From contig NJBH01000004.1 of NCBI GenBank assembly GCA_005223125.1, positions 32,001-96,000 of the forward strand: a DNA stretch of 64,000 nucleotides. Direction: 5' to 3'. This stretch comes from Promethearchaeota archaeon Loki_b32. GTDB lineage: Archaea; Asgardarchaeota; Lokiarchaeia; Sigyniarchaeales; SOKP01. This document shows positions 37,437 through 52,082 of this stretch, one piece after another. A program made the translations under genes and the position numbers. A model generated the notes under the pieces. It worked only from the letters and a program-made list of their open reading frames with translations. It was not told the origin of the DNA and did no database searches. Positions within the stretch are counted from its first letter, which is position 1, and each line of letters opens with the position of its first letter.

Positions 37437-40400
37437 TTAACTTTGAACTAAAAGTGCAGAAATCATAGCGTGAATTTGCTCAAAACCAAAATGTTTAATA
37501 ACTATTGTTGAGTTAGGGCATTGAGCACCACATGTACCACATCCTTTGCAAAGTGCAGGATTTATGTGGGATTTCAATATAGTCATTGTGAAATCTTCGA
37601 ACGTTCTTTCTTCCTCTATTAATTCTATAGCGTTAAATTGACAAACTTCAAGACAACTTCCACAACCAATGCAATTTTCTTCTATTACAACAGCTACAAG
37701 CCCAGATGTTACAAGTTTTTCAGCGCTTAAAATTTTTACTGCTTGGGCAGCAGCTCCATTGGATTGTGCTATTGATTCTCGAAGATCTTTAGGTGAATGT
37801 GCGCTCCCACATAAATATATACCATCTGTTGCAAAATCAATTGGTCTCAATTTAACATGAGCTTCCAAAAAGAATTTGTCCTCATTAAGTGGAACTTTTA
37901 ACATTTTTGCTAAATCTTCATTTTCTTTTATAGGTGCTACGAGACCTGTACTTAATACAATTAAATCAGGATTTATTTCAATTTCTCCTAAATCTGGATT
38001 GTTTACTATTATTTTTAATTGTTTATTTTTAATATTTAATTCTGGAGGTTTAGTTTCATCAAATCTTATGAAGATAACCTTTTTATCTCGTGCTAGGTTA
38101 TAATATTTTTCTTTAAAACCATATGTCCTAATATCACGATAAAGAATCACTATTTCTATTTTAGGATTGATTTCTTTTGCTTTTAACGCATTTTTAATGG
38201 CTTCTGAACAACAGATTCTGCTACAATATGGGTGATCTTCATTTCTGGATCCAACGCATTGAATCATAACTATTGATTTCACTCCTTTTACTTTATCTGT
38301 AGTAAAAAGATCTTTTTCAAATTCAGTTTGGGTTATAATTCTTTGGTCTTGTCCAAAATTGTATTCATTTGGTTGATATTCTTTTGCTCCAGTCGCTACA
38401 ACTATTATTCCAAGTTCAAGATCAACACTTTTGTTATTATTTCCGTAGTTTATATTTGTGGAAAAATTTCCAATATACCCTGATATTGAATTGATTTGAG
38501 CATTTTTAAATACTTGAATAAGTTGATTATTTTCAACATTTTTAATTAAATTTTTAAGATATTCCTGAATATTATCATTTTCAAGGGTCCGATAAAGATT
38601 TTTAGCAATTCCCCCTAGAGAATCTTCCTTTTCAATTAAGTAAACTTCATAACCTTGAGAAGCTAGATTTAATGCTGCTGACATTCCAGATACACCACCA
38701 CCTATAATCAAACCTTTATTTATTACAGCTATTTCTTGTTCCTGTAACGGGATTAATTGGCTAGCCTTTGCTACTGACATGCGCAATAAGTCTTTTGATT
38801 TTGCCGTTGCTTTTTCAGGTTCATGCATATGGACCCACGAACATTGATCTCGAATATTTACCATTTCAAATAGATATTTATTTAAACCAACTTCTCTTAT
38901 TGTCGCTTGAAATAAAGCTTCATGAGTTCTTGGAGTACATGATGCAACAATCACTCTATTCAGTTTGTTATTTTCTATTTTTTCTTTAATATTAGTTTGA
39001 GTATCTGCTGAACAGGTATATAAATTATGTTCGGCATAAACAACATTGGGTAAAGTTTTAACATATTCTACTACATTAGGAACATCAACAACCCCACCAA
39101 TATTTATTCCGCAGTGACATATAAATACTCCTATTCGCGGTGGTTGATCAGTTACATCCAATTCTTCGGGAAGTTCTTTCTTAGAGACTAATTTGTTTCT
39201 TGCTTCTGATAGAAGAACATTTACACATCCAGCAGCAGCACTAGCTTCAATAACAGTTTCTGGAATATCTTTAGGTGTTGCGAAAGACCCACAAACATAA
39301 ATCCCTGGTCTTGAAGTATCTACGGGAGTAAAAGTTTCAGTTTTACAAAACCCATATTCATTTAATTGGATATTTAATTTCTGTGCTAATTCTTTTGCTT
39401 GTTGATTAGGTTGCATTCCTACAGAAAGGACGACTAGATTAAAAAATTCTTCAATAATTTTTCCATTTCCTGTTTCATAATAAACTTTTAAATCTTTAGA
39501 GTCCGGAATTTCTTTAATAGAAGATATTCTGCGCCTGATATATCTTATTCCATACTCATCCTTTGCTCGTTCAATATATTTATCAAAATCTTTACCATAT
39601 GCTCTGATATCCATTGTAAAAATGGTTGGATCTATAATATTCATATGCTCTTTCGCTATAACTGCTTCTTTTGTAGTATACATACAACATACTGAAGAGC
39701 AATAATCATTACCCTGCTTTCTGTCCCTTGAACCAATACAATTTAAAAAGGCAATTTTTTTAGGAATAATTCCATCAGAAGGGCGAATTATTAAACCTGA
39801 GTGTGGTCCACTAGCACTTAGAATACGCTCAAATTCAATACTAGTGATTACATTTAGATATTTACCATAGCCGAATTGCTTTAAAGGGGTAGGATCGTAT
39901 TCATCAAACCCTATTGCTAATACTACAGCACCTACATTAAGGTTAATTTCTTTATTTTGAAGTTCATAATCTATAGCTTTTACTTTACATATTCCCTTAC
40001 ATATTCCACAACCTATACATTTGTCTTTGTCAATTGAAAACACTAATGGAACTGCCTGTGGAAATTTTACGGATATTGCTGCTATATTAGAAAGTTTCTC
40101 ATTAAAAAAATCTATAGCCTCTATTGGACATTGTTGAGCACACAAACCACATCCAGTACATTTATTTTGATCTAAACGAAGTGTTCTTTGAGTTAAATCA
40201 ACCTTAAAATTACCAGGTTCACCTTCAATTTTTTCTATTGAAGAATTAATTAAAATATCGATATTTTCATGTCGTCCAGTTTCTACTAATTTCGGGGCAA
40301 GAATACATATTGCACAGTCATTAGTTGGAAATGTTTTATCTAATTGAGACATAACTCCACCAATACTGGTTGTTGATTCTGCGAGATAAACTTTATAACC

Positions 40401-40478
40401 TGAATCTGCTAAATCTATAGAAGTTTGAATACCTGCAATTCCACCACCAATTACTAGAACAGCTCCGACTTTCTCCAT
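37437..40478 (-). CDS. hdrA: HdrA-like flavoprotein, long two-FAD-domain form
   Basis: GGGIAG, FPTNDCAIC, CIGSRD, CHCGINI, CVGSR, EAHVKLRP, terminal ferredoxin. Confidence 0.92.
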   Translation of the reverse strand: MEKVGAVLVIGGGIAGIQTSIDLADSGYKVYLAESTTSIGGVMSQLDKTFPTNDCAICILAPKLVETGRHENIDILINSSIEKIEGEPGNFKVDLTQRTLRLDQNKCTGCGLCAQQCPIEAIDFFNEKLSNIAAISVKFPQAVPLVFSIDKDKCIGCGICKGICKVKAIDYELQNKEINLNVGAVVLAIGFDEYDPTPLKQFGYGKYLNVITSIEFERILSASGPHSGLIIRPSDGIIPKKIAFLNCIGSRDRKQGNDYCSSVCCMYTTKEAVIAKEHMNIIDPTIFTMDIRAYGKDFDKYIERAKDEYGIRYIRRRISSIKEIPDSKDLKVYYETGNGKIIEEFFNLVVLSVGMQPNQQAKELAQKLNIQLNEYGFCKTETFTPVDTSRPGIYVCGSFATPKDIPETVIEASAAAGCVNVLLSEARNKLVSKKELPEELDVTDQPPRIGVFICHCGINIGGVVDVPNVVEYVKTLPNVVYAEHNLYTCSADTQTNIKEKIENNKLNRVIVASCTPRTHEALFQATIREVGLNKYLFEMVNIRDQCSWVHMHEPEKATAKSKDLLRMSVAKASQLIPLQEQEIAVINKGLIIGGGVSGMSAALNLASQGYEVYLIEKEDSLGGIAKNLYRTLENDNIQEYLKNLIKNVENNQLIQVFKNAQINSISGYIGNFSTNINYGNNNKSVDLELGIIVVATGAKEYQPNEYNFGQDQRIITQTEFEKDLFTTDKVKGVKSIVMIQCVGSRNEDHPYCSRICCSEAIKNALKAKEINPKIEIVILYRDIRTYGFKEKYYNLARDKKVIFIRFDETKPPELNIKNKQLKIIVNNPDLGEIEINPDLIVLSTGLVAPIKENEDLAKMLKVPLNEDKFFLEAHVKLRPIDFATDGIYLCGSAHSPKDLRESIAQSNGAAAQAVKILSAEKLVTSGLVAVVIEENCIGCGSCLEVCQFNAIELIEEERTFEDFTMTILKSHINPALCKGCGTCGAQCPNSTIVIKHFGFEQIHAMISALLVQS

Positions 40479-41755
40479 TACTTTCCCTCAACATTTTTAT
40501 TGGGTTCTATTATTTTTATCAGATCTACTAAAAACTCTGAAAAATCTAAAATTTCAATAGAAGAAAAGTCTTCATAGTCTTTTTTTAGACAATTTAGATG
40601 CATGCGACATTTTGGACAAGATGTAATCATTTTGGTTCCAACAGCTTTAGCTTCTAAAAGACGTTTATATCGCAATGCTTTAGACCGCTCATTACAATTC
40701 ATCCAAGAATTTACTCCACAACAATAAGAATTTTCTTTATTGTGTTCCATTTCTTTAAAATTATAACCAATAATTTTCAAATGCTTGAAGATTTCTCGGA
40801 CTTCCTCAATTATTTTATTATCCTTTGGTAAAAATCTACTTAACCTACAAGGGTCATGATAAGTAAAAGGAATAACCTCATCAGATTTATTAGGATTTTT
40901 AAATAGAACTTTTCCCTGCTTCCATTTATCAAAAATATATTCAATTATGTGTTTAACTTCAAATTTTTTATTAAACTCTTCAAACAGTTTTGGATAATCA
41001 ATTTTAAAGGTTCTATAACATTCAGCACAAGCAGTAACAATTGTTGTAGCTCCCGTTTCTTCAAACCGTTTAACATTTTTTTTTGCTAATTCAATAAAGC
41101 TTTCGAATTTTGCTTGACCCCAATATAAATCGTGTCCACAGCATATCTCATCTTTTAGAATCACTACCGGATCTTTTTCTAATTGACAAATAATCTTAAG
41201 TGTGCTTTCTGCTATAGATAATGAGTCTTCAAATTCATAGTTAAAAAAAGGTAAACATCCGACATAATATAAAATATTTCCCTTATCTGAAGTTTTACAT
41301 CCTTTTGGAATCCAATCTAAAGGTCTCTCAATTTCCATATTGTCTTGACTCATCATTTCTGACATCAAAGGATAAATACCTTTATGAGCAATAGAACGAT
41401 CAGGATTTTGAATATCTTTTAATCGCATTTTATATCTAGCAATTCTGACAATATCAGCAAAATTAATATCTTTAGGGCAATGTTCTAGGCAACTATTACA
41501 CATTAAACAATCCCATAATACCTGACTATTAATTATCTCATCTTCAAAGCCTTCTAATATCATTTGAATAATTCTACTAGGTGTAAATTTTTGAACCTTA
41601 CTGATTTGACATACACCCGAGCAACGGGCACATTGATAACACTTTTTTAGCAAATTAATTAAATCTGGTTCATAAATCTTTCTTAAGTATAAATTAGAAT
41701 CATTTTCTTCTTGTTTTACCTTTTTAAGATTTTCGATTTCAGTTATGAGATTCAC
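40478..41755 (-). CDS. HdrD-like Fe-S oxidoreductase (4Fe-4S + CCG), paralog of 30056..31336
   Basis: CYQCARCSGVC, ICCG, YHDPCRL, YCCG. Confidence 0.88.
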   Translation of the reverse strand: MNLITEIENLKKVKQEENDSNLYLRKIYEPDLINLLKKCYQCARCSGVCQISKVQKFTPSRIIQMILEGFEDEIINSQVLWDCLMCNSCLEHCPKDINFADIVRIARYKMRLKDIQNPDRSIAHKGIYPLMSEMMSQDNMEIERPLDWIPKGCKTSDKGNILYYVGCLPFFNYEFEDSLSIAESTLKIICQLEKDPVVILKDEICCGHDLYWGQAKFESFIELAKKNVKRFEETGATTIVTACAECYRTFKIDYPKLFEEFNKKFEVKHIIEYIFDKWKQGKVLFKNPNKSDEVIPFTYHDPCRLSRFLPKDNKIIEEVREIFKHLKIIGYNFKEMEHNKENSYCCGVNSWMNCNERSKALRYKRLLEAKAVGTKMITSCPKCRMHLNCLKKDYEDFSSIEILDFSEFLVDLIKIIEPNKNVEGK

Positions 41756-41759
41756 TTCC

Positions 41760-42872
41760 TTATTTTAAGTTTTTCATGAATTCTTTTCTTCGTTCTATTT
41801 TTGATTCTGAAAATTTAGCTATTAGGGTTTTTATATTTCCTTTTGTATTTTCATCAAGTTTTAAGTTTTTAATAATGTTTTTATCTAATGCCTTCTGGAG
41901 TAACTGCCTACCTTTTTCAGTTCGGGGTATTACAGTAGTAAATCTATCTGGGGATCCAAGCCCTCCAAACGAAATATCTGAATAAATATTGGTAAAATCA
42001 ATACATGAATGACAAGCTGGGCGTATATAATTAACTAATTTATTAAAAGGAATATGGATTATCTTTTCTTTTGAGTCTTTATCTTCTAGCTTTAAAATTA
42101 AATCCTCCTTAATATTTATTTTTATAATATCTTCGAATTTTATCTTAAATTCTTTTTCAAATATCTCGATTTGAGATTTTTCAAATAGAAAATTGTGATA
42201 ACAGAATAAACCTAAACAAATCTCAACATGTTCTGAAGGGGTAACTCCTAAAGTCTGCATACATCTTATAGTATAAATTTGACAAGGTGTTCCCACAATT
42301 GCTAACTTTTTAAATTTATAATGACTTAATTGAGGAATTGAGGTTGTATAAGTGCTAAACCTTTGTATTTCATCTACTTGTGGAGATATATTTAAAATTG
42401 TACCCGATGCTTTAATTAGGTCGTCTTTATTCTCTGCCAACATAGCTTCTCGAGAAAATGGACTCTCAGCTTTAGAGACTATTGCTCCATCGATAATTTT
42501 ATTTTCTAATAAGAAATTTAAAAGTGTATTTACCACACCTCCATCTGTCCCATGTTTTAGAAATTCTTTATCCGTACTTTGACAAGAATAGAAATCTTCA
42601 GCAAATCCGTAAGGCATTGATTTAAAATCAGTGAATTGATATGTCTTATTAAGATCATCATCTAAAATATGTGTTTGAGGGCACAAGTAATAACATATAC
42701 CACATTCAAGGCATGCATCCTTATTTATATATTCAGGAGGGGATTTAGGCTCTTTAAAGCCTATTACATTCTCGAATGTTGCCGAACAGAAAGAAGTACA
42801 TCCACCACATTCTTGGCAGATCCCTTTTTCATGAACTTCCTTAATTAAATCTTGAAATGTTTTTATACTCAT
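41760..42872 (-). CDS. FrhB/FdhB family (F420-binding) protein with ferredoxin domain; likely start MSIKTF
   Basis: CQECGGCTSFC, CLECGICYYLCP, DGGVV, VGTPCQ, GLFC, DISFGGLG. Confidence 0.85.
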   Translation of the reverse strand: MSIKTFQDLIKEVHEKGICQECGGCTSFCSATFENVIGFKEPKSPPEYINKDACLECGICYYLCPQTHILDDDLNKTYQFTDFKSMPYGFAEDFYSCQSTDKEFLKHGTDGGVVNTLLNFLLENKIIDGAIVSKAESPFSREAMLAENKDDLIKASGTILNISPQVDEIQRFSTYTTSIPQLSHYKFKKLAIVGTPCQIYTIRCMQTLGVTPSEHVEICLGLFCYHNFLFEKSQIEIFEKEFKIKFEDIIKINIKEDLILKLEDKDSKEKIIHIPFNKLVNYIRPACHSCIDFTNIYSDISFGGLGSPDRFTTVIPRTEKGRQLLQKALDKNIIKNLKLDENTKGNIKTLIAKFSESKIERRKEFMKNLK

Positions 42873-42888
42873 ATTAATAATTTTTATA

Positions 42889-44385
42889 TTACTCCTTTTC
42901 CAATTTGATTGGTTTACAATTTTTTCTTTTGATACCAGCAATCCTTTCTAATAAGGGTTGCCCTGGTTTAACCTCCTTTAAGCTTTTAGATTCTATTAAA
43001 CCTGCTTTAATTGCCTCTTTATAGATTTTTTCACCTATTTTTGTTCTTGTTATTACTGATGACCAGCCACTAGGTGAACCTATTGATCCTACAGAAATAT
43101 CAGCAAAATCGGCTGTTAAATCTTCACAATAATGACAATTATGGCGAGCATAGGACTTAACTTCTTTTAAGGGTACTCTTAGGTCCTCACCAGAATCTAA
43201 GTATATAATGAATTTACCTCCACTTATGTCCATTTTTGTTACTTTATTAAAATCTTTTTGAAATTGTTCTTTAATTAAGTTAAGTACGCCCTCGTAAGGA
43301 AAAGATTCCATGCAGAAAAGTCCTATTCTATATTTGATATTTTTGAAAAATGGTAATCCACTCGGAAACAAAGTACCCTTTTCAATAGCATTCATTATAC
43401 ATGGAGTACCTACAACAGCTATTTTGTCATATTTCTTGGCTTTATCTATAATAGCTAAAGTAGATGCATTTGCATATTTAGTTCCCCCAGTCTTATATAA
43501 ATCTTTCAAATCATCCACAATGACGGGTTCAGGCTTCCATTTCTCTTCTGAGTGCTGTACTGCTACAATTGCGTCAACCAGTTTATTTTCTAATAAGTAT
43601 TGTAAAATGGATGTAACAACACCACCATCTTGTCTTACTTTTTTAATATCATCCTTAGTGGTGCTGGCAGAATAAGTATTGATATAACCATTAATTTTTT
43701 CTGAAAATTTTAAAGATTTATCAAGCTTATTTATACTTCTGCCCGCTTGCTCAATTGAAAATGATTTCGGGCAAACAGAATAACATATGCCGCATTTCAT
43801 ACAAGTTTCATCATCGATCTCCAAAATATCTGCTGTTACTGTAATTGCGTTTACAGGACAAATTGATGAGCACCAACCACATTGACAGCATACTTCAGAA
43901 TCAAACACAATAGAAACAGGTTCAAAAAAATGTTCAATGAAGTCATCAGGCAGATCTTTAACTTGATATCTATAGAAATATTCTTTTTCCTCGACTTTTT
44001 TTTCTTCTCCCTTTATTTTCTTGATAACAGTTTTAGTCTTTATTTCGATATGTTCTTCAATATATCCCTGTTCTTTAAGATAAATTACATCACGAATTAC
44101 ATTTTCTCTAGGAAACTCTTTTAGAATTTTTGCAATTTCCTCTAAAAATAATGGTTCCTTACCTTTTAATGATTCTAACACTAATTTACGCTCTGTTTCA
44201 GCATCGATCATAGCATCCAGAATTTCATAAAACTCCTCCTCAGAAAGTTTTCCTACACTTAGAATATCATTCTTTGCTTCGAAGAAAGCTCGAATTTGAA
44301 AATTCTCAACTGCTTTATAGGTTGCATCCATTAAATTTTTTGGAGATACTCCATTGAAATTTACATTGTTTGAAATTTGAACCAT
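42889..44385 (-). CDS. FrhB family protein with N-terminal helical/winged-helix-like extension and ferredoxin
   Basis: CCQCGWCSSICP, QDGGVVT, GGTKY, VGTPC, GLFCMESF, CHYCED..ADISVG. Confidence 0.85.
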   Translation of the reverse strand: MVQISNNVNFNGVSPKNLMDATYKAVENFQIRAFFEAKNDILSVGKLSEEEFYEILDAMIDAETERKLVLESLKGKEPLFLEEIAKILKEFPRENVIRDVIYLKEQGYIEEHIEIKTKTVIKKIKGEEKKVEEKEYFYRYQVKDLPDDFIEHFFEPVSIVFDSEVCCQCGWCSSICPVNAITVTADILEIDDETCMKCGICYSVCPKSFSIEQAGRSINKLDKSLKFSEKINGYINTYSASTTKDDIKKVRQDGGVVTSILQYLLENKLVDAIVAVQHSEEKWKPEPVIVDDLKDLYKTGGTKYANASTLAIIDKAKKYDKIAVVGTPCIMNAIEKGTLFPSGLPFFKNIKYRIGLFCMESFPYEGVLNLIKEQFQKDFNKVTKMDISGGKFIIYLDSGEDLRVPLKEVKSYARHNCHYCEDLTADFADISVGSIGSPSGWSSVITRTKIGEKIYKEAIKAGLIESKSLKEVKPGQPLLERIAGIKRKNCKPIKLEKE

Positions 44386-44448
44386 ATTTACATCCTTTTG
44401 GATTACATTTTTTAAAAAATTTTATTTTTACTTGAATACTATTTAAAA

Positions 44449-44516
44449 ACCCCTTCCCTTGCGAGGTTGGTCTTCTTATAACTAGAATTTGTTTATAAGA
44501 ATCATTCCGTAGGGGT
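44449..44516 (-). promoter_or_regulatory. eukaryote-type (Loki) SECIS element
   Basis: mRNA: ACCCCU acgg AUGA U-UCUUAUAA acAAAuucuag UUAUAAGA-A GA ccaaccucgcaaggga AGGGGU; AUGA/GA core, 9-bp upper stem, apical AAA, 6-bp lower helix. Confidence 0.85.
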
Positions 44517-44963
44517 AGTTATAACTTGTTTTGCTTCAACTTTCGATTTATCATCTACTAAGTTAAGTGGACTTGGTCCGGCTTTGCTAACCTTTTTGTA
44601 AGCGTCCTCAACAGATTCGACAAATTTCCCAGCATCTCCTCCACTTAACCAATACATATTTATTCTTTGATTTCCGAAACCTCTGGATTCTAAGATCCTA
44701 TTTGCTAAGTCTACATGTCTTTGAGCAGTGAAATTTCCGTTTTTAAATTGACACTCATTAGGTCGTCAACCAACAATCATGACACCATCAGCTCCCGCGC
44801 GAATGCTATATAAAATGTGCTTAATGTCAATTCTTCCAGTACATCTTACTTTGATAATTTTTACTGCAGGAGTGTATTTCATTCGAGAAACCCCAGCTAA
44901 ATCCGCCGCGCTATATCCTCATTTTATGCAAGCAAAAACGATTAAATTATAAGTATTTTCCAT
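44502..44963 (-). CDS. vhuD: selenocysteine-containing VhuD/MvhD (153 aa, Sec15 and Sec66); absent from ORF track
   Basis: [51 protein letters not shown]..; TGA at 44919-44921 and 44766-44768 align to Cys of the two Cys-MvhD paralogs; SD GGAGGTG from the hdrA 3' end. Confidence 0.92.
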
Positions 44964-44969
44964 GTTTTT

Positions 44970-47008
44970 TTAACCACCTCCTAAAAGACCATCAATTTCA
45001 GCGAATAATTGGTGATCTCGATAATATCTGATGTCAATTGCTTGAGTAGGACAACAAGTAGCACAAATACCGCAACCGTCACAATTTATTTCATCAATAA
45101 ACGCTCCGATATCTTCTTCAATTCTAATAGCATTTTTAGGACATTCTTTTTCACATCGTCTACATGAAATGCAGAATTCACTATCTACTTCAGCAGTAAT
45201 AAGTTCAATATCAATTTCTCCTGGTGATGTTACTTCAGCAACTTTACTAGCCGCAGCTCTAGCTTGAGAAACGGAGTAAGAAATATTTTTCGGTCCTTGA
45301 GCAAATCCAGCAATAAAAATTCCTTTTGCCTTTGTTTCTTGTGGCATTAAACCGAAATGTGATTCTGTAAGAAAGCCATATATATTAGTATCAAGATTTA
45401 ATACCTTTACAATCTGTTCAGTACCTTTTGAAGGAAGTGCTGCTGTAGATAAAACGACTAAATCAGCATCAATTTTTACAATCTTATCTGTTAATGACGA
45501 ATATACACGAACTTTCACGTTTTTGGTTTCGGGATCTTCAGAGATTTCACCGACTTTTCCACGAATCATTCTGATACCTGCATCTTTAGCTCGTTCGTAG
45601 TATTCTTCAAATCCTTTTTCAGGAGTTCTTATGTCAATATAGCAAATAGTAATGTTCGCATCGGGAAATTCTTCGAGCAATAAGCGTCCATTTTTTAGAG
45701 CAAGCATACAGCATACACCACTACAATAGGTTCGTTCAGTTTCTCGACTTCCTACGCATTGTATAAATACAATTTCTTTGGGTTGTTTATTATCTGAAAG
45801 CCGGTGTACATGTCCTTCAAGTGGTCCATTCGGAGCTAGTATTCGTTCTAATTGAACTTGAGTTATAACATTTTCGAATTCTCCATACCCATATTCACCA
45901 AAAGGTTCATGTATGTCCCAACCAGTTGTTATAATGATCGTACCAACTTCGATATTGACTTCCATAGGTACTTGACTAAAATCAATGGCATCTAATTCAC
46001 AGGCATCTACACATGAGAAACATTCAACACAAGCATCTCGGTCAATATCATATAAAAACGGTACTGCTTGACCAAATGGTATATCAATTGCTCTTCGAGC
46101 TCCTAAATGTTCATCGAAATAATTACTTACATATACGGGGCAAACCTCACTGCATGCACCACACCCATTGCATTCGTCTGTTGTATATCGCGGTTTTTTT
46201 TCAATTGTTACGTTATAATTACCAACATAACCCTCGATTTTTTTGACTTCACTATAGGTTAATAATTCAATGTTCTCATTTCTGTTGATATTTAGCATAA
46301 CAGGACCGCAGATTCATATTGCACAATCATCAGTGGGAAAAGTTCTGTCCAATTGAGCCATTCGTCCTCCGATTGTCGTTTTCTGTTCGACTAAGTAAAC
46401 TTTTATACCTTGGTTGGCAAGATCGAGCGCGGCATTCATTCCAGCTATACCCCCACCGACGATTAAAGTGGCCTTCTTAACTGGAACAGTCTTAATAGGA
46501 ATGGGTTCTAAAAGTTTAGCTCTTTCAATACCGCTTTTTACTAATGTTTTTGCTTTTTCTGTAGCCTCTTCTTTACTATCCGTGCACCAATTTTGCATTG
46601 AGCAGTAAATCTGCTTAAAAAAAATCTGCAATGTTCACGGACGTTAACCATCTGAAAGTAATAAGGATTTAAATCTGTTTTAGCAATTGTACCCCGGTAA
46701 ATCACTTCATGCGTACGCGGTGTTCAAGCTGATGCCACAATCCTATTTAAACCTTTTTCCTTGATATCTTCTATTATCTCATTTTGAGCGTTATCAGTTC
46801 ATAGAAAAGCGTTTTTCTTAGAAATTACAATATCATCAAAATTTTTGGTTGCAAACTCTACGAGCTCGTCGCAATCAACCTTAGAACGGATATTAATCCC
46901 TCATTTGCCAAAAACAAGGAAATCATACTTTTTTTGGCAGGCATAATATCCAATCCTTAGCTGTTCATTATCTTTATTAATCTTCGTATCATTCCATTGA
47001 CTATTCAT
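44970..47008 (-). CDS. hdrA: selenocysteine-containing HdrA (4 Sec; 657 aa after removal of two putative introns)
   Basis: TGA at 46901-03 (C-x-U-GINI), 46799-801 (FL-U-TD), 46724-26 (SA-U-TPRTHE), 46314-16 (DCAI-U-IC), all at Cys positions of the paralogs; joins track ORFs 46314..46631 and 44970..46298. Confidence 0.88.
46591..46625 (-). other. putative 35-nt BHB-type mRNA intron (intron 2 of Sec-hdrA)
   Basis: Removal gives GAA CAT TGC AG^T TGG TGC = EHCSWC and restores frame; central helix UUGC/GCAA, bulges AG^A and AA^U, exon-exon stem GUCCGUG/CACGGAU. Confidence 0.72.
46904..46933 (-). other. putative 30-nt BHB-type mRNA intron (intron 1 of Sec-hdrA)
   Basis: Removal gives TGC CAA^TGA GGG = CQUGINI; central helix UGCC/GGCA, bulges AA^A and AA^U, exon-exon stem GGAUAUUA/UAAUAUCC. 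Confidence 0.68.
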
Positions 47009-47467
47009 TTTTTTCCCTCTTTCTTTTTTTCCACCTCTTATTTTTGTGACAATTCAACACTTATTTATGCGCAATAGTAAACATACTTACTGATATATAC
47101 AGTAGTGTAAAAATCTCTATGATAGCATAAATTTTGTAAATTAATATTATATCATTTAGATTTTATTCTTTTTAATATTTTTATTTCTTACTATTTATCT
47201 ATGTAAGCAAATTTTAGGATTGTGATTATAGATTCAAACCAAATTTTATCTTTATGAAAATTTAAGAACAAGAAATTTCGATAAGCATTAGGAAAAAAAG
47301 GGAGAATTGATTATTTTTGCACATTTTAATGAGAAAATTTGAGTTCATTATAAAAAAGAAAATATAAATTTAAATAAATTATAAGAAAAAAAAATTTAAA
47401 TAAAAATCAGATAATAATCTTACCATTAGAAATTTCATTGAATAAAATGTCTTAAAGATGTGAGAAT

Positions 47468-48277
47468 ATGGCGGATGGAATCTTTATAATACGAGGTGGT
47501 TTTTTCGGATGGGAATTTACTCTTAAACTCCTTTACGTTATATTTGGACTTATCCTTTGCATTTATGATTGGAAGAAAAATAAAAGAAAAGATTATTTCT
47601 GGGTATTTATATTTGGGACAATGTTGTATCTTGGATCTGAAATGATGCTATATTTCTTTGGAGGGCGCGTTATGCAGGAAAAGCTTTTATTCGGTATGGA
47701 TATCACTTCCATGGTTTGGCTATGGCTTCCCCTATTGGCAGTGGGGGATGTCGTAATGTTAGCAGTAATCGCTCTATTTTTCGCTGATAGAATAAGAAAC
47801 TCAGAAACGCGAAAAAAGTGGGGAATTCTTTTCATAGTATGGTTAGTTTGTAGAGATGTATTACCATACATAATCCTTTTTGGTTTGGGTTACACATTTG
47901 ACACTATTTCTATTGGAGACCCTCTCATTTATTCTAGAAGAAATATGATAGAAATGGGCACACTAATATCTTTATCAATTCTTGTTGTTATTGCAATAAT
48001 CTGGCTCGTTAAAACAGATAAGAAATCAAGAAAGCGAGGATTATATATGATTGGTATAATGCTTATTCTGATGATAGCATGGAGTTTCGGAGAATGGTTC
48101 TCAGGTCAACGATGGATCGAGGTTGGACCAGAAGAAGGTCCTTGGACTCTTGCTCCCCCTCTCCTACAGTTTGCGATGTTCGCATATGATATAGTAATTG
48201 AAATGGGGCTTTTTACAGTGTGTTTTCTAGCATTTCCCTATTTTTTCAAATTGATAAAATCTGAAAAACAAGATTAA
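47468..48277 (+). CDS. hypothetical multi-pass membrane protein
   Basis: 269 aa with about 7 hydrophobic segments. Confidence 0.7.
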   Translation: MADGIFIIRGGFFGWEFTLKLLYVIFGLILCIYDWKKNKRKDYFWVFIFGTMLYLGSEMMLYFFGGRVMQEKLLFGMDITSMVWLWLPLLAVGDVVMLAVIALFFADRIRNSETRKKWGILFIVWLVCRDVLPYIILFGLGYTFDTISIGDPLIYSRRNMIEMGTLISLSILVVIAIIWLVKTDKKSRKRGLYMIGIMLILMIAWSFGEWFSGQRWIEVGPEEGPWTLAPPLLQFAMFAYDIVIEMGLFTVCFLAFPYFFKLIKSEKQD

Positions 48278-48421
48278 ATTTTCATTTTTTTTAACCAAAG
48301 GTAAGCAAAACCCTTTCTTCATTTAGTAATGCTTTCTTTATGATAAATGAGAAAAATTCTATATTATAATCAAAAAAGGATTAATAGAAATTAATGAATA
48401 ATCAATATAAAAATACGAAAT

Positions 48422-49417
48422 TTATTGATTGAATTTGATAGGACCAGGATGATTGTTATTTAAATATTCTCTATAATAATGAGACTTATTCAATAGGTAT
48501 TTTTGCGCTATTGGTTTAAACATCATAGTAAAGAATCGTGAGAATACAACTTTTTTTCTTACTGCATTAAAGTAATCTTCGAGAGTATACCTTTGATAAT
48601 TCAGAAGTGCTTGACTTTTATCTGTTGTCATAAATCCGCAGTGAAAGCCCCTTCTACTAAAAGCTTCCTCAGGTAATTCATTAAAACCAATCCCAAAAAT
48701 ACCTAACATTTCATTAAGATATTCTCGATATGAAATCCGACATTTGTCTCCACCAGCAATATGCATAACTTCTCCCCAAATCTCTTCGCTTTCCACCGCA
48801 TTAGTAAGCGCGAGACCGACATCTTTTGTATCACAAATTTCAATACATGTTTCGAGGGGCATTTCAAACATTAAAGGATCCATTTGAAGTTTATTCAAAG
48901 AGACGATATATGTTAAGCGAAAGATTGCCCACTCCAGACTAGATTTTTTAATCAATTCTTCGCATATGATTTTTTGTTTTGCATATTCATCGTCATGATT
49001 AGGATTTAATGGATCCTCAGGTGTTATTAAAGGATTCTCGAGTCGATCTCCATAGATAGCAACTGAACTTGTAAATATAAGTTTCGGCTTTTTGGGTTGA
49101 CTTTCCATTGCTCTAATAATATTTGAGGTTCCGCCAATATTAACCGATTCTGCAAATTTAGGTTTTTTATCGGCTAAAGGTGGGATTATCGCCGCGACAT
49201 GAACAACAACATCTCTATCAGAAACAGCTCTTTCTACATCTTTATAATTTCTTAAATCGCCCCAAACAACTTCTACATCTTTTTTATATTTGTTTGCTAA
49301 TCTTTTGTTTCTTTTAGTTTTAATATCAAAAATTCTAATATCATAATTTCTTTTCATCAATTCTTTTAAAGTACTCAATCCAACATTACCAAAAGCTCCT
49401 GTCAATAAAACTTTCAT
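48422..49417 (-). CDS. extended SDR / NAD-dependent epimerase-dehydratase family
   Basis: TGAFGNVG, HVAAIIPP, YAKQK. Confidence 0.88.
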   Translation of the reverse strand: MKVLLTGAFGNVGLSTLKELMKRNYDIRIFDIKTKRNKRLANKYKKDVEVVWGDLRNYKDVERAVSDRDVVVHVAAIIPPLADKKPKFAESVNIGGTSNIIRAMESQPKKPKLIFTSSVAIYGDRLENPLITPEDPLNPNHDDEYAKQKIICEELIKKSSLEWAIFRLTYIVSLNKLQMDPLMFEMPLETCIEICDTKDVGLALTNAVESEEIWGEVMHIAGGDKCRISYREYLNEMLGIFGIGFNELPEEAFSRRGFHCGFMTTDKSQALLNYQRYTLEDYFNAVRKKVVFSRFFTMMFKPIAQKYLLNKSHYYREYLNNNHPGPIKFNQ

Positions 49418-49707
49418 AAATAAATACCTCTAACCTTTATGATTTGATTTTTATATTCTTGTCTGACTGATATTCAGTATTAAGATATATCAGAATCTAC
49501 TATAATATATATCTGAATCTACCATATATAAATCTTTGCATAAAAAAAACAATATAAGTAGAATTAAAAAATACTTTAATATTCGATAATGCTAAGAAAG
49601 ATTGAGTACTCCAAAAAGTTCAATTTAAATTATATGTATATATAACTTTTATATTATTGTGAAAATAACTATAAAAAAGTAAAATAATTATAAATAAGTG
49701 AAAGATA

Positions 49708-50457
49708 TTGATGAGTTTGAGTTTTGAAGATCTGAGAACTATTATAAGTTCTGGAAAAAAGACAGAATTTGCTAAAGCGATGGGTAATGTATTAACAGAA
49801 AAACAGAATAATCTTCCAGATTTTTACGATTTCTATGGTAAATTGATCAAAGAAGATATTATTTTTACATTGAGTAAATGCTATATTCGTTTTAGGAAAT
49901 ATGCACAAAGAATACTTTCACTAGATCAATTAATGGAAATGGATAAGATTCTAATGGAAAATTATGCATTAAGTAAGCATGAACCTATAGAATATTGTTT
50001 TTTAGGATCAATTTATAGAATAGGTGCTACGTGGGCTAGTTCGCTTTTTGGCGTTATATATATCACAAAATTAAGAGTAATAGGATTAGGAATATATCAT
50101 CAATCTTCTGGAGTAAGGGCTATTGCAAAAGCTGTATCCAGTTCGATCTATGACACATCACATAAGGCATTCAGACACTCGATGCAAAAAACACTGGGTG
50201 ATGATTTTTCTGAAGCGGAATTAACTAAATTCGATCATTTCTATCCTATTATTAATATGTATAATATTAAAAAAAAGAAGGATATCATAGTGTATACAAC
50301 TAAGCTTGAATATGAAAAAAAGGGTAAAACAAAGACAATAAAATTAACTATTAAATTAAAACCTGAAAAAGAGAAAAACGAAGATAAAATAGCTTTTACT
50401 ACAAAAAAGGAAGACCTTCTGAATAAAATTGAATCTTTCCTATTATCTTATCAGTAA
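49708..50457 (+). CDS. hypothetical protein
   Basis: 249-aa ORF; no recognisable motif. Confidence 0.55.
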   Translation: MMSLSFEDLRTIISSGKKTEFAKAMGNVLTEKQNNLPDFYDFYGKLIKEDIIFTLSKCYIRFRKYAQRILSLDQLMEMDKILMENYALSKHEPIEYCFLGSIYRIGATWASSLFGVIYITKLRVIGLGIYHQSSGVRAIAKAVSSSIYDTSHKAFRHSMQKTLGDDFSEAELTKFDHFYPIINMYNIKKKKDIIVYTTKLEYEKKGKTKTIKLTIKLKPEKEKNEDKIAFTTKKEDLLNKIESFLLSYQ

Positions 50458-50634
50458 GTTCAACTATGTTTCGCAAGACGATGCTTGTAAAAGATTAATC
50501 TTAAAGTTTTAATGAATATTTTTGGATTTAGTTTTGCATTGATAGTATTTTTTCAAACATGGTTTTTTGGTGAAATCGTGTTATATTTGCTATTTTTTAG
50601 AATACCTAATCTCTTTTATCTATTCTATATTGAA

Positions 50635-51273
50635 TTAATTTTTACTAAGGTTTAAGGTATCAATTCGATGGTTAATTTCATTGACGACATTTTGTAATTT
50701 TTCGATTATTTTTGATAACACTCCCTTTCTTTTTGAAAGGATTTTTAGTTTTTCATCATCTGTTTTTCCAATTAAACTTGTATCTTCAATTAATTCAGGT
50801 CCAAATAAGCTTTCAAAATCATTTGGGATATTCGTATCAGTTATTCCTATAGTTGACATTATCATTGAAAGAAGTGATTTTCGCATGTTTTGTTGTCTTT
50901 CAATAAGTTTTTTCAACGTTTTTTTGCCTTTCTCTGTAATTTCATAAACCTTTCGTTCCCGTTTTCCATCCATTTTAGTTGTAAATTGAATTAATTCTTT
51001 ATCTGTTAATGATGATAGATGCGGGTATAATGAAGAGGCAGTTGGGTTCCATACACCATATGTATCTTCCTTAATTGTCTGCATTAAACTATAACCGTGA
51101 GAGGGGCTTTTTTCTAATGCTAATAATATTAATGTACTAATATGACCTTTCTTCATGGATTGTTCAATAGCATCAGCAATCACATCAATTTTTTCTGAAT
51201 TTTTTACATTTTGGTTGTTATTAGTCGGAGTCATGTGAAAGATACCATAAAAAATAAAATGATCAAATATCAA
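50635..51273 (-). CDS. PadR family transcriptional regulator (true start probably downstream, MTPTN)
   Basis: SHGYSL..SLYPHLSSL..RKVYEITEKGK. Confidence 0.88.
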   Translation of the reverse strand: MIFDHFIFYGIFHMTPTNNNQNVKNSEKIDVIADAIEQSMKKGHISTLILLALEKSPSHGYSLMQTIKEDTYGVWNPTASSLYPHLSSLTDKELIQFTTKMDGKRERKVYEITEKGKKTLKKLIERQQNMRKSLLSMIMSTIGITDTNIPNDFESLFGPELIEDTSLIGKTDDEKLKILSKRKGVLSKIIEKLQNVVNEINHRIDTLNLSKN

Positions 51274-51450
51274 TTATAGATATATCAAAATACATAATAA
51301 ATATTTATTTTCTATAATAATAGAGTTAAAATAAAGTTAAAATTTTGAAGAATTTACTGATCTTGTTTTCTTTTTCTCAATGTTATCCATAAAAAGAATC
51401 CCGATATTTTCAGGCGCAATTTCTCCTGCGGGATAAAACCATAAAATAAA

Positions 51451-51573
51451 TTAAAATAGATCCTTATACTTTTCTTTGATTTTTTTCAGAAGATCTTTTA
51501 TTTTCTTCTCATCCATTTCAGAAAGTTTTTCTCTTATCTTATGAATTTCCTCTAAAGATTTTTCTTCTTTTAA
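51451..51573 (-). CDS. small charged ORF overlapping PIN stop (putative antitoxin; start unclear)
   Basis: KEEKSLEEIHKIREKLSEMDEKKIKDLLKKIKEKYKDLF*; conserved in the duplicate at 35063-35180. Confidence 0.45.
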   Translation of the reverse strand, partial: LKEEKSLEEIHKIREKLSEMDEKKIKDLLKKIKEKYKDLF

Positions 51574-52082
51574 TAAACCATTTCCTCTGGAGTACAAATA
51601 ATCACATCCTTTTCTTTTAATTTTTCATTAATAGCTTTTACTTGAAATTTAGTTTTGAATTTAACTATGTGGGTTAAATTCCAACTAACTATTGCATCCA
51701 TTTTATATTTAGTTGCGATAGCAATATGGAGGGCATCATTATAGTATTTTTTTGGAATAATCCCCTCATCTACATAAACTTTTGCTAAGTTTTCTACCTG
51801 TTCTGAACTTTCTAAAGCTCTCATTTTATATTCATTAATAACATTTGATAACAATTCTTTTTTTTGCTCTGTCGCTTGTTCAATTTCCAATAACACAATA
51901 TCAGAAATAAACACTTCATACTCATTTATTACATTAAAAAACTCCTGTGTAATTTTCATTTTCTCTGGGGCATCTTCAGCAAATAGAAAATTTATAACTG
52001 AAGTTTCTAAATATATTTTCATAGTTATCTCTTGCTGTGTTTCAATTATTATATCTTCTATTAAGTTTATATATTCTTCCAT
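51570..52082 (-). CDS. PIN-domain protein (likely start MKIYLETSV)
   Basis: IYLETSVI, VLLEI, NDALHIAIA, SWNLTHI, ICTPEE. Confidence 0.85.
   Translation of the reverse strand: MEEYINLIEDIIIETQQEITMKIYLETSVINFLFAEDAPEKMKITQEFFNVINEYEVFISDIVLLEIEQATEQKKELLSNVINEYKMRALESSEQVENLAKVYVDEGIIPKKYYNDALHIAIATKYKMDAIVSWNLTHIVKFKTKFQVKAINEKLKEKDVIICTPEEMVY

Follow-up and report, generated by a model that had tools for sequence, protein, structure and literature searches.

The window analysed here is a stretch of 64,000 nucleotides from the genome of the Promethearchaeota archaeon Loki_b32 (assembly GCA_005223125.1, contig NJBH01000004.1, positions 32,001 to 96,000; contig C36, 32001-96000, of the genome termed G000), whose assembly is 4.1 Mb in length and 95% complete. 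Its minus strand carries an hdrA gene in which four TGA codons are read as selenocysteine (Sec), and whose coding sequence is interrupted by two short inserts. The first insert (46933-46904) is very probably a mini-intron of the tRNA type, defined by its bulge-helix-bulge (BHB) structure, in the pre-mRNA of the four-Sec hdrA of this Lokiarchaeia-type Asgard archaeon. Five independent lines of evidence support the assignment: the orthologues, an in-frame TAA in strains of the same species, the BHB geometry, an RNA contig and an exceptionally strong exon stem. The parts of the gene are as follows.

44970..47008, minus strand: Sec-hdrA in three exons, with the ATG at 47008 and the stop at 44970-44972; TGA is read as Sec
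46934..47008, minus strand: exon 1, M1 to Q25, ending in UGC CAA
46904..46933, minus strand: intron 1, 30 nt, assigned from its absence in orthologues, the RNA contig compared with DNA, and the in-frame TAA in L145-L147
46901..46903, minus strand: the first Sec codon, UGA, aligned with Cys13 of 5ODC_A; TGA is retained in all orthologues
46626..46903, minus strand: exon 2, from Sec to REHC plus the nucleotides AG, holding the Sec codons 46799-46801 and 46724-46726
46591..46625, minus strand: intron 2, 35 nt, frame-breaking, with BHB helix UUGC/GCAA and bulges AG^A / AA^U, skipped in the RNA of runs X15 and X16
44970..46590, minus strand: exon 3, from the U of a Ser codon through WCTD to the stop, holding the Sec codon 46314-46316 (DCAIU)

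By translation, the spliced gene encodes a product of 658 residues with four Sec. Once both inserts are removed, the sole stops in the hdrA frame are the four UGA codons (46903-01, 46801-799, 46726-24 and 46316-14), all at conserved Cys positions. The exon 2 product matches residues 13-103 of the structurally solved HdrA of Methanothermococcus (5ODC_A) with an E-value of 4e-23. In the unspliced frame, ten codons encoding KKYDFLVFGK (46933-46904) separate C24 (46939-37) and Q25 (46936-34) from the UGA (46903-46901), which is followed by G-I-N-I. Removal of the 30 nt yields ACQUGINI, the canonical HdrA motif CxCGxNI with its second Cys replaced by Sec.

A search of the genus gave 41 orthologous Sec-hdrA genes of 70-92% amino-acid identity, all with TGA codons. 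Exactly the same 30 nt are missing in all 41, which read TAT GCx TGY CAR TGA GG across the site. An earlier note on this DNA, made from the sequence alone, had proposed that KKYDFLVFGK splits the CxU motif; the orthologues bear this out, with an uninterrupted Cys-x-Sec in 41/41. In the gene tree, the sister of G000 is G003, from which both G000 introns are absent; therefore intron 1 was either gained on the G000 branch or survives only there.

The boundaries of intron 1 coincide with a BHB fold composed of the following elements.

46936..46939, minus strand: 5' strand of the central helix, UGCC, in exon 1, pairing 4/4 with GGCA and invariant in seven strains
46906..46909, minus strand: 3' strand of the central helix, GGCA, in the intron, pairing 4/4 with UGCC
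46933..46935, minus strand: 5' bulge AA^A (A46935 A46934 ^ A46933), cut between 46934 and 46933
46903..46905, minus strand: 3' bulge AA^U (A46905 A46904 ^ U46903), cut between 46904 and 46903
46926..46932, minus strand: 5' arm of the inner helix h', 7 bp with 46910-46916
46910..46916, minus strand: 3' arm of the inner helix h', 7 bp with 46926-46932
46944..46951, minus strand: 5' arm of the outer exon-exon stem, GGATATTA (GGAUAUUA), a perfect repeat partner of 46888-46895
46888..46895, minus strand: 3' arm of the outer exon-exon stem, TAATATCC (UAAUAUCC), a perfect repeat partner of 46944-46951

An AA repeat permits two alternative placements of the boundaries, with which the central helix would retain only 3/4 and 1/4 pairs. 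The boundaries that fall inside both bulges are those given by the 41 orthologues and by the RNA contig. Random placement in the G000 genome gives a 4/4 helix in 2.5% of cases, so that the chance for intron 1 alone, with its three possible placements, is ~7%. As the earlier note had it, the U of the UGA is the third nucleotide of the 3' bulge: the cut falls between A46904 and U46903, and exon 2 starts with the intact UGA. Its central claim, a 30-nt in-frame intron whose 3' cut directly precedes the U of the first Sec codon, agrees with orthologues, strains, geometry and RNA alike.

Both inverted repeats named in that note are present and perfect, namely the outer exon-exon stem and a second repeat that pairs TGCCAAAAA (46939-46931) with TTTTTGGCA (46914-46906). 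In the computed fold, the exon arms pair after splicing into a hairpin that encloses the UGA in its loop and has an energy of -17.7 kcal/mol, compared to -3.3 to -10.1 kcal/mol for the equivalent 51 nt in the 41 intron-less orthologues. G000 is an outlier among them, so that the intron and strong exon-exon pairing go together. This is also the case at the site of intron 2, where, among 19 loci compared, GUCCGUG and CACGGAU are both present only in the intron-bearing G000 and G024; they also occur together in L144, a further lineage with an intron at this site. A bacterial-type SECIS (Sec insertion sequence) hairpin was considered for the structure at intron 1 and ruled out. Such a hairpin directly follows the UGA on its 3' side, whereas this structure is located 5' of the codon, and the 41 orthologues retain the UGA without it.

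A protein search with exon 3, together with exact look-ups, yielded ten further DNA contigs. Another contig, L054, came from a metagenome scan that admitted both joined and intron-containing forms and returned the intron-containing form only. All six contigs of the same species that reach intron 1 (L054 and L145-L149, 97-99% identical) contain the insert. Three of them, from three separate assemblies (L145, L146 and L147), carry a TAT>TAA change inside it that creates an in-frame stop. L148 has three changes in the insert: G46928>A, which turns a G.U of the inner helix into A.U, one in the loop, and one that breaks an A-U pair. Across the seven strains, 4/30 intron positions vary, compared to 1/111 in the flanking exons (Fisher p = 0.007), and no variation affects the central helix, either bulge or the exon stems. 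The in-frame stop and the higher variability therefore indicate that the insert is not maintained as coding sequence. Together with the orthologues, they mark it as lineage-specific and non-coding, and its open frame in G000 is incidental; from base composition, a 30-nt AT-rich insert is roughly estimated to be stop-free in about 4 in 10 cases. The expectation of the earlier note that standard annotation would never flag the intron holds for G000, by accident only, and fails for the sister strains with a stop in the insert.

Among the public runs that contain the stretch, two are metatranscriptomes, X15 and X16, from which contigs rather than reads were compared over 40000-52000; the evidence does not draw on the RNA runs X18-X20, in which <0.1 of the sampled words occur. 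In the X15 RNA contig (1129 nt), exactly 30 nt are missing at 46904, and so is 46591-46625. The latter 35 nt are likewise skipped in the X16 contig, whose span does not include intron 1. Both inserts are kept in the DNA runs X1 and X6, the latter from the same study as the RNA, and the joined form was seen in no DNA contig of these two runs. At intron 1, precise loss from RNA with retention in DNA is hence documented by one RNA contig. The RNA contigs cover only the hdrA-vhuD operon, ~44539-47157, whereas the two DNA runs cover the entire 40000-52000; carry-over of DNA therefore does not account for the RNA contigs. They are 97.5-98.8% identical to the window and can be assigned to this species because they match the N-terminal extension specific to G000 as well as its 5' leader. 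They carry single-nucleotide polymorphisms (SNPs) absent from the X1/X6 DNA contigs; those flanking intron 2 (46482C and 46684T) occur in the DNA contigs L145-L153, which contain intron 2. The contigs of both runs end at 47140-47157, which suggests a transcript start ~130-150 nt upstream of the ATG; at the other end, the cover stops near 44539.

Intron 2 is absent from most orthologues, and its length varies through a U-run: the intron measures 35 nt in G000, 34 in L054 and 32 in L144, the last of which also has the Ser codon TC|T in place of AG|T. Two other readings of this segment were rejected. One was an insert of only 26 nt, with REHC joined to SMQNW; the orthologues and the RNA joint give 35 nt (46625-46591) instead, restoring C-S-W. 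The other was a -1 frameshift on U_UUU_UUA, which is contradicted by RNA that skips the segment and by the differing U-run length between strains.

Whole-gene alignment across the genus revealed six short inserts at four sites of Sec-hdrA.

Site A: G000, 30 nt, equal to intron 1
Site B: G048 (L040), 30 nt, in frame and stop-free, 12 nt downstream of site A
Site C: G020 (L016) and G067 (L050), 39 nt each, with an in-frame stop
Site D: G000, 35 nt, and G024, 34 nt, both frame-breaking

In all six, a 4-bp helix without mismatches and a pair of 3-nt bulges coincide exactly with the boundaries given by the alignment, and the joint chance of the helix for the five lineage-level inserts is 1.7e-7. 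The site D helix covaries, with UUGC/GCAA in G000 and UUGU/ACAA in G024. The site B insert has a GUAU/AUAC helix with bulges AA^A / AG^A and shares 16/30 positions with intron 1 of G000; its origin may be an independent gain or intron sliding. The two site C introns are clearly related, yet each of their hosts is sister to an intron-less species (G059 and G062) in the tree, which implies several losses or transfer.

Two further loci bear on site D. The metagenomic contig L144 (JGI 3300041075, 100-180) has a site D intron with an identical 26-nt core, whereas the flanking exons are ~80% identical over 650 nt; conservation is thus higher there in the intron than in its gene, a hint of lateral spread, of gene conversion or of a constraint acting on the intron. 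The intron-less contig L143 (JAGLVA010000853.1) is a mosaic that is 97.7% identical to G000 downstream from the site D junction and 86.7% identical over the whole of 46883-46151, implying ~70% identity upstream of the junction, where it has the short N-terminus of other species. Its sequence points to a recombination breakpoint at or near the intron site. Joined open reading frames in a 90% protein cluster had been considered as intron-less alleles of the G000 species, and were rejected because the closest (P0125, from L143) belongs to another lineage, with 87% nucleotide identity overall and the short N-terminus typical of other species.

We propose that the transcript folds such that UGCC of exon 1 pairs with GGCA of the intron, leaving AA^A and AA^U as bulges, each of which would be cut once by the archaeal splicing endonuclease, presumably EndA. 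A ligase, presumably RtcB, would then join CAA to UGA and bring back the Cys-x-Sec motif. Intron 2 (46625-46591) would be removed likewise to bring back the reading frame. We infer both enzymes, as well as how efficiently and when splicing takes place and whatever regulatory role it might have. G000 encodes two EndA paralogues (PF01974; contigs C18 and C2) and one RtcB (C48), and the Asgard EndA is reportedly of the broad-specificity (alpha-beta)2 type with an L1 loop that permits relaxed motifs (PMC5829648). Short-word BLAST of introns 1 and 2 against the whole G000 genome found no second copy of either, so they are not a repeated mobile element. A radA paralogue of G000 (C33:460-1100, L139) has a 31-nt frame-breaking insert within GGNIVAHG, the removal of which restores this motif. 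Its geometry is the same as in hdrA, with a helix GGGA/UCUC, a 6-bp stem in the intron and bulges AU^A / AA^A; hdrA is therefore not the only mRNA with mini-introns in this organism. In addition, ARAGORN found only 15 tRNA genes in G000, 7 of them with introns, a count that fits the heavy interruption reported for Asgard tRNA genes (bioRxiv 10.64898/2026.10.13.758758), and most tRNA genes of G000 are presumably hidden by non-canonical introns.

Several observations weigh against the intron assignment, the first group of which concerns the fold. On the outer side of the 3' bulge, one C-G pair is followed by an internal loop and only then by the 8-9 bp exon stem; the motif of intron 1 is therefore relaxed (HBh'-like) rather than canonical hBHBh'. 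Relaxed HBh' motifs are cut by (alpha-beta)2 and epsilon2 enzymes only (PMC5829648). Moreover, the minimum-energy fold of 81 nt (-24.5 kcal/mol) contains a continuous stem, GCCAAAAA/UUUUUGGC, without the 5' bulge, and the BHB fold is ~5.7 kcal/mol less stable than this alternative. The competing stem postulated in the earlier note is hence real and energetically favoured. It might serve conditional splicing, in which the stable stem hides the 5' bulge and the transcript switches, for example with selenium supply, between a retained form with a broken CxU motif and the spliced form. Such a switch concerns the function of the intron and is compatible with its existence. The retained form is stop-free in G000 and the cut site touches a Sec codon, both as a switch would have it. 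However, with a stop in the sister strains no retained isoform can be conserved as a product, the frame is broken by intron 2 anyway, the three other intron sites of the gene are not next to Sec codons, and the sole RNA contig over intron 1 represents the spliced form. We thus regard conditional splicing as improbable. The adjacency of intron 1 to a Sec codon is probably coincidental, because the cut does not split the UGA and sites B, C and D do not adjoin Sec codons.

The second group concerns the RNA. Intron 1 is covered by one contig from one run (X15), and contigs say nothing on the amount of unspliced RNA. This contig has a private patch at 46832-46887, 17 nt from intron 1, with 11 substitutions and two compensating indels, of which a search of the ten DNA contigs gave no trace and which no other DNA contig examined shows; the transcribed strain's own DNA is therefore not observed at intron 1. 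The patch changes VEFATKNFDD to IEYVKNFGEE and resembles G001-type sequence, as a strain-level mosaic. Accordingly, KKYDFLVFGK might be a tolerated, translated insertion of ten residues, and the RNA contig might come from a strain whose DNA lacks it, the more so as G000, L054, L148 and L149 all have the insert in frame and without a stop, and synonymous changes make up two of the three in L148. Against this, the in-frame TAA occurs in three assemblies, the insertion would split a CxU motif invariant in 41 orthologues, and the insert has BHB geometry. In addition, intron-less DNA of this species was found in none of the two DNA runs (X1 and X6), the one metagenome scan and the ten contigs, and ten DNA runs contain >0.81 of the sampled words from the stretch, which would be impossible if both inserts were missing there. 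A translated insertion is hence very improbable.

The junction could also be an artefact, in that reverse transcriptase skipped the hairpin or the contig was mis-assembled, or the segment could be passed over by ribosomal bypass as in gene 60 of T4. The segment is indeed flanked by a strong hairpin and a short AA repeat, but what is missing is identical to what the orthologues lack, and the neighbouring 35-nt skip has no terminal repeat and is present in two RNA runs. For bypass, there are no matched take-off and landing codons, and the loss occurs at the RNA level; explanations of this kind are highly implausible. Finally, it is scarcely credible that the gene is a decaying pseudogene gathering small insertions, as its two insertions (one frame-breaking) and four in-frame UGA codons might suggest, given that the UGA codons stand at conserved Cys positions common to the orthologues, the frame is open over its full length after removal of the two inserts, hdrA is transcribed together with vhuD, and the ratio of nonsynonymous to synonymous substitution rates (dN/dS) of the spliced gene against its orthologues is ~0.05. 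Judged by this ratio, computed on a codon alignment, Sec-hdrA, once spliced, is under strong purifying selection.

Returning to the introns as such, all four sites lie within the first 27% of Sec-hdrA, occur in at least six lineages, and follow a pattern that departs from the gene tree. It is conceivable, if unlikely, that the 5' part of Sec-hdrA is a hot spot where BHB mini-introns are still being gained, lost and laterally spread. Translation beyond codon 26 would wait for the SECIS 2.4 kb downstream and would be uncoupled from transcription; this delay might leave time for splicing, and intron 1 with its hairpin might gate ribosomes before the UGA.

The downstream part of the operon consists of the following two features.

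44502..44963, minus strand: vhuD/mvhD, two Sec codons, directly downstream of hdrA
44471..44505, minus strand: Loki-type SECIS core assigned by its fold, with AUGA, a 9-bp stem, an 11-nt loop and GA

This core is the sole SECIS candidate for both hdrA and vhuD, and the terminal UGA of vhuD is the UGA of its AUGA, with a TAA three codons further. The hdrA-vhuD-SECIS arrangement and the lokiSECIS features match those described for Lokiarchaeota by Mariotti et al. 2016 (PMC4989117), where introns in mRNA are not mentioned. An Rfam search of 44200-47300 returned no family at E <= 1.

The Sec positions of hdrA correspond to three Cys of the N-terminal domain and to a DCxxU site that resembles the Cys197 position. 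The N-terminal Fe-S cluster of HdrA is ligated by Cys of the N-terminal domain and by Cys197 of the partner subunit (PMC9012536). Because Sec stands at the N-terminal Cys positions and at the Cys197-like site, one HdrA Fe-S cluster might be largely Se-ligated. G000 also contains a member of a second Sec-hdrA paralogue family (C36:16950-17219; relatives L020 and L024), ~50% identical, which reads C-R-U-G-V-N-I, with Sec at the CxU position and Cys at both inner N-terminal positions. A supposed intron in the G023 copy of this family, suggested by its shortened frame, was rejected, as there is merely an extra in-frame TGA after CSFVS.

The closest known system is the BHB intron in the pre-mRNA of cbf5 (pseudouridine synthase) of Crenarchaeota (Watanabe 2002; Yoshinari 2006; Yokobori 2009, PMC2738675); according to PMC2738675, archaeal pre-mRNA splicing had been confirmed for no other gene. 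In the literature searched, confirmed splicing within archaeal coding sequence is limited to cbf5, and mRNA introns are not reported for Asgard archaea. Like hdrA intron 1, the cbf5 intron is short, lies within archaeal coding sequence, has a BHB at its boundaries and is gained or lost among relatives; its removal is thought to be by a hetero-oligomeric splicing endonuclease, as we assume for hdrA. The hdrA case differs in that its host belongs to the Asgard archaea (Promethearchaeota), the gene encodes a selenoprotein with two introns, and four sites are found in the genus; compared to cbf5, hdrA intron 1 is in frame and stop-free in G000, and relaxed at the 3' outer helix. Asgard archaea also have non-canonical tRNA introns, described in a study that does not treat mRNAs and presents no RNA evidence (bioRxiv 10.64898/2026.10.13.758758), and the tRNA-Sec of Lokiarchaeota has an intron of 31 nt (PMC4989117). 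Here, by contrast, the host is an mRNA, in which no tRNA body aids recognition and the codon sequence must be restored. In Haloferax volcanii, a 5' untranslated region is processed in a BHB-dependent manner (PMC7714728). The splicing endonuclease acts on mRNA at a BHB motif there, as we propose for hdrA, but the Haloferax site is untranslated and belongs to a euryarchaeon whose enzyme is of the alpha'2 type, whereas the hdrA intron lies inside the coding sequence. In eukaryotes, the HAC1/XBP1 mRNAs contain a small intron (26 nt in XBP1) that a protein endonuclease cuts out at paired stem-loops, and the exons are joined by a tRNA ligase, which in animals is RtcB. The endonuclease is Ire1 rather than the tRNA splicing endonuclease, and the splicing is a regulated stress switch. 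The likeness to the hdrA intron is one of analogy in the way the splicing works.

Altogether, tRNA-type splicing of a protein-coding RNA now extends to an Asgard archaeon, a member of the group closest to eukaryotes, and its support combines transcript contigs, population variation and genus-wide comparison, with repeated recent gains in one gene. The hdrA intron also provides a concrete substrate on which to test how specific Asgard EndA is towards mRNAs. As the G000 insert neither shifts the frame nor contains a stop, gene callers and frameshift checks would miss it there, and Asgard proteomes may hold further unrecognised 10-residue "insertions" that are introns, affecting structure prediction, motif analysis and phylogenies.

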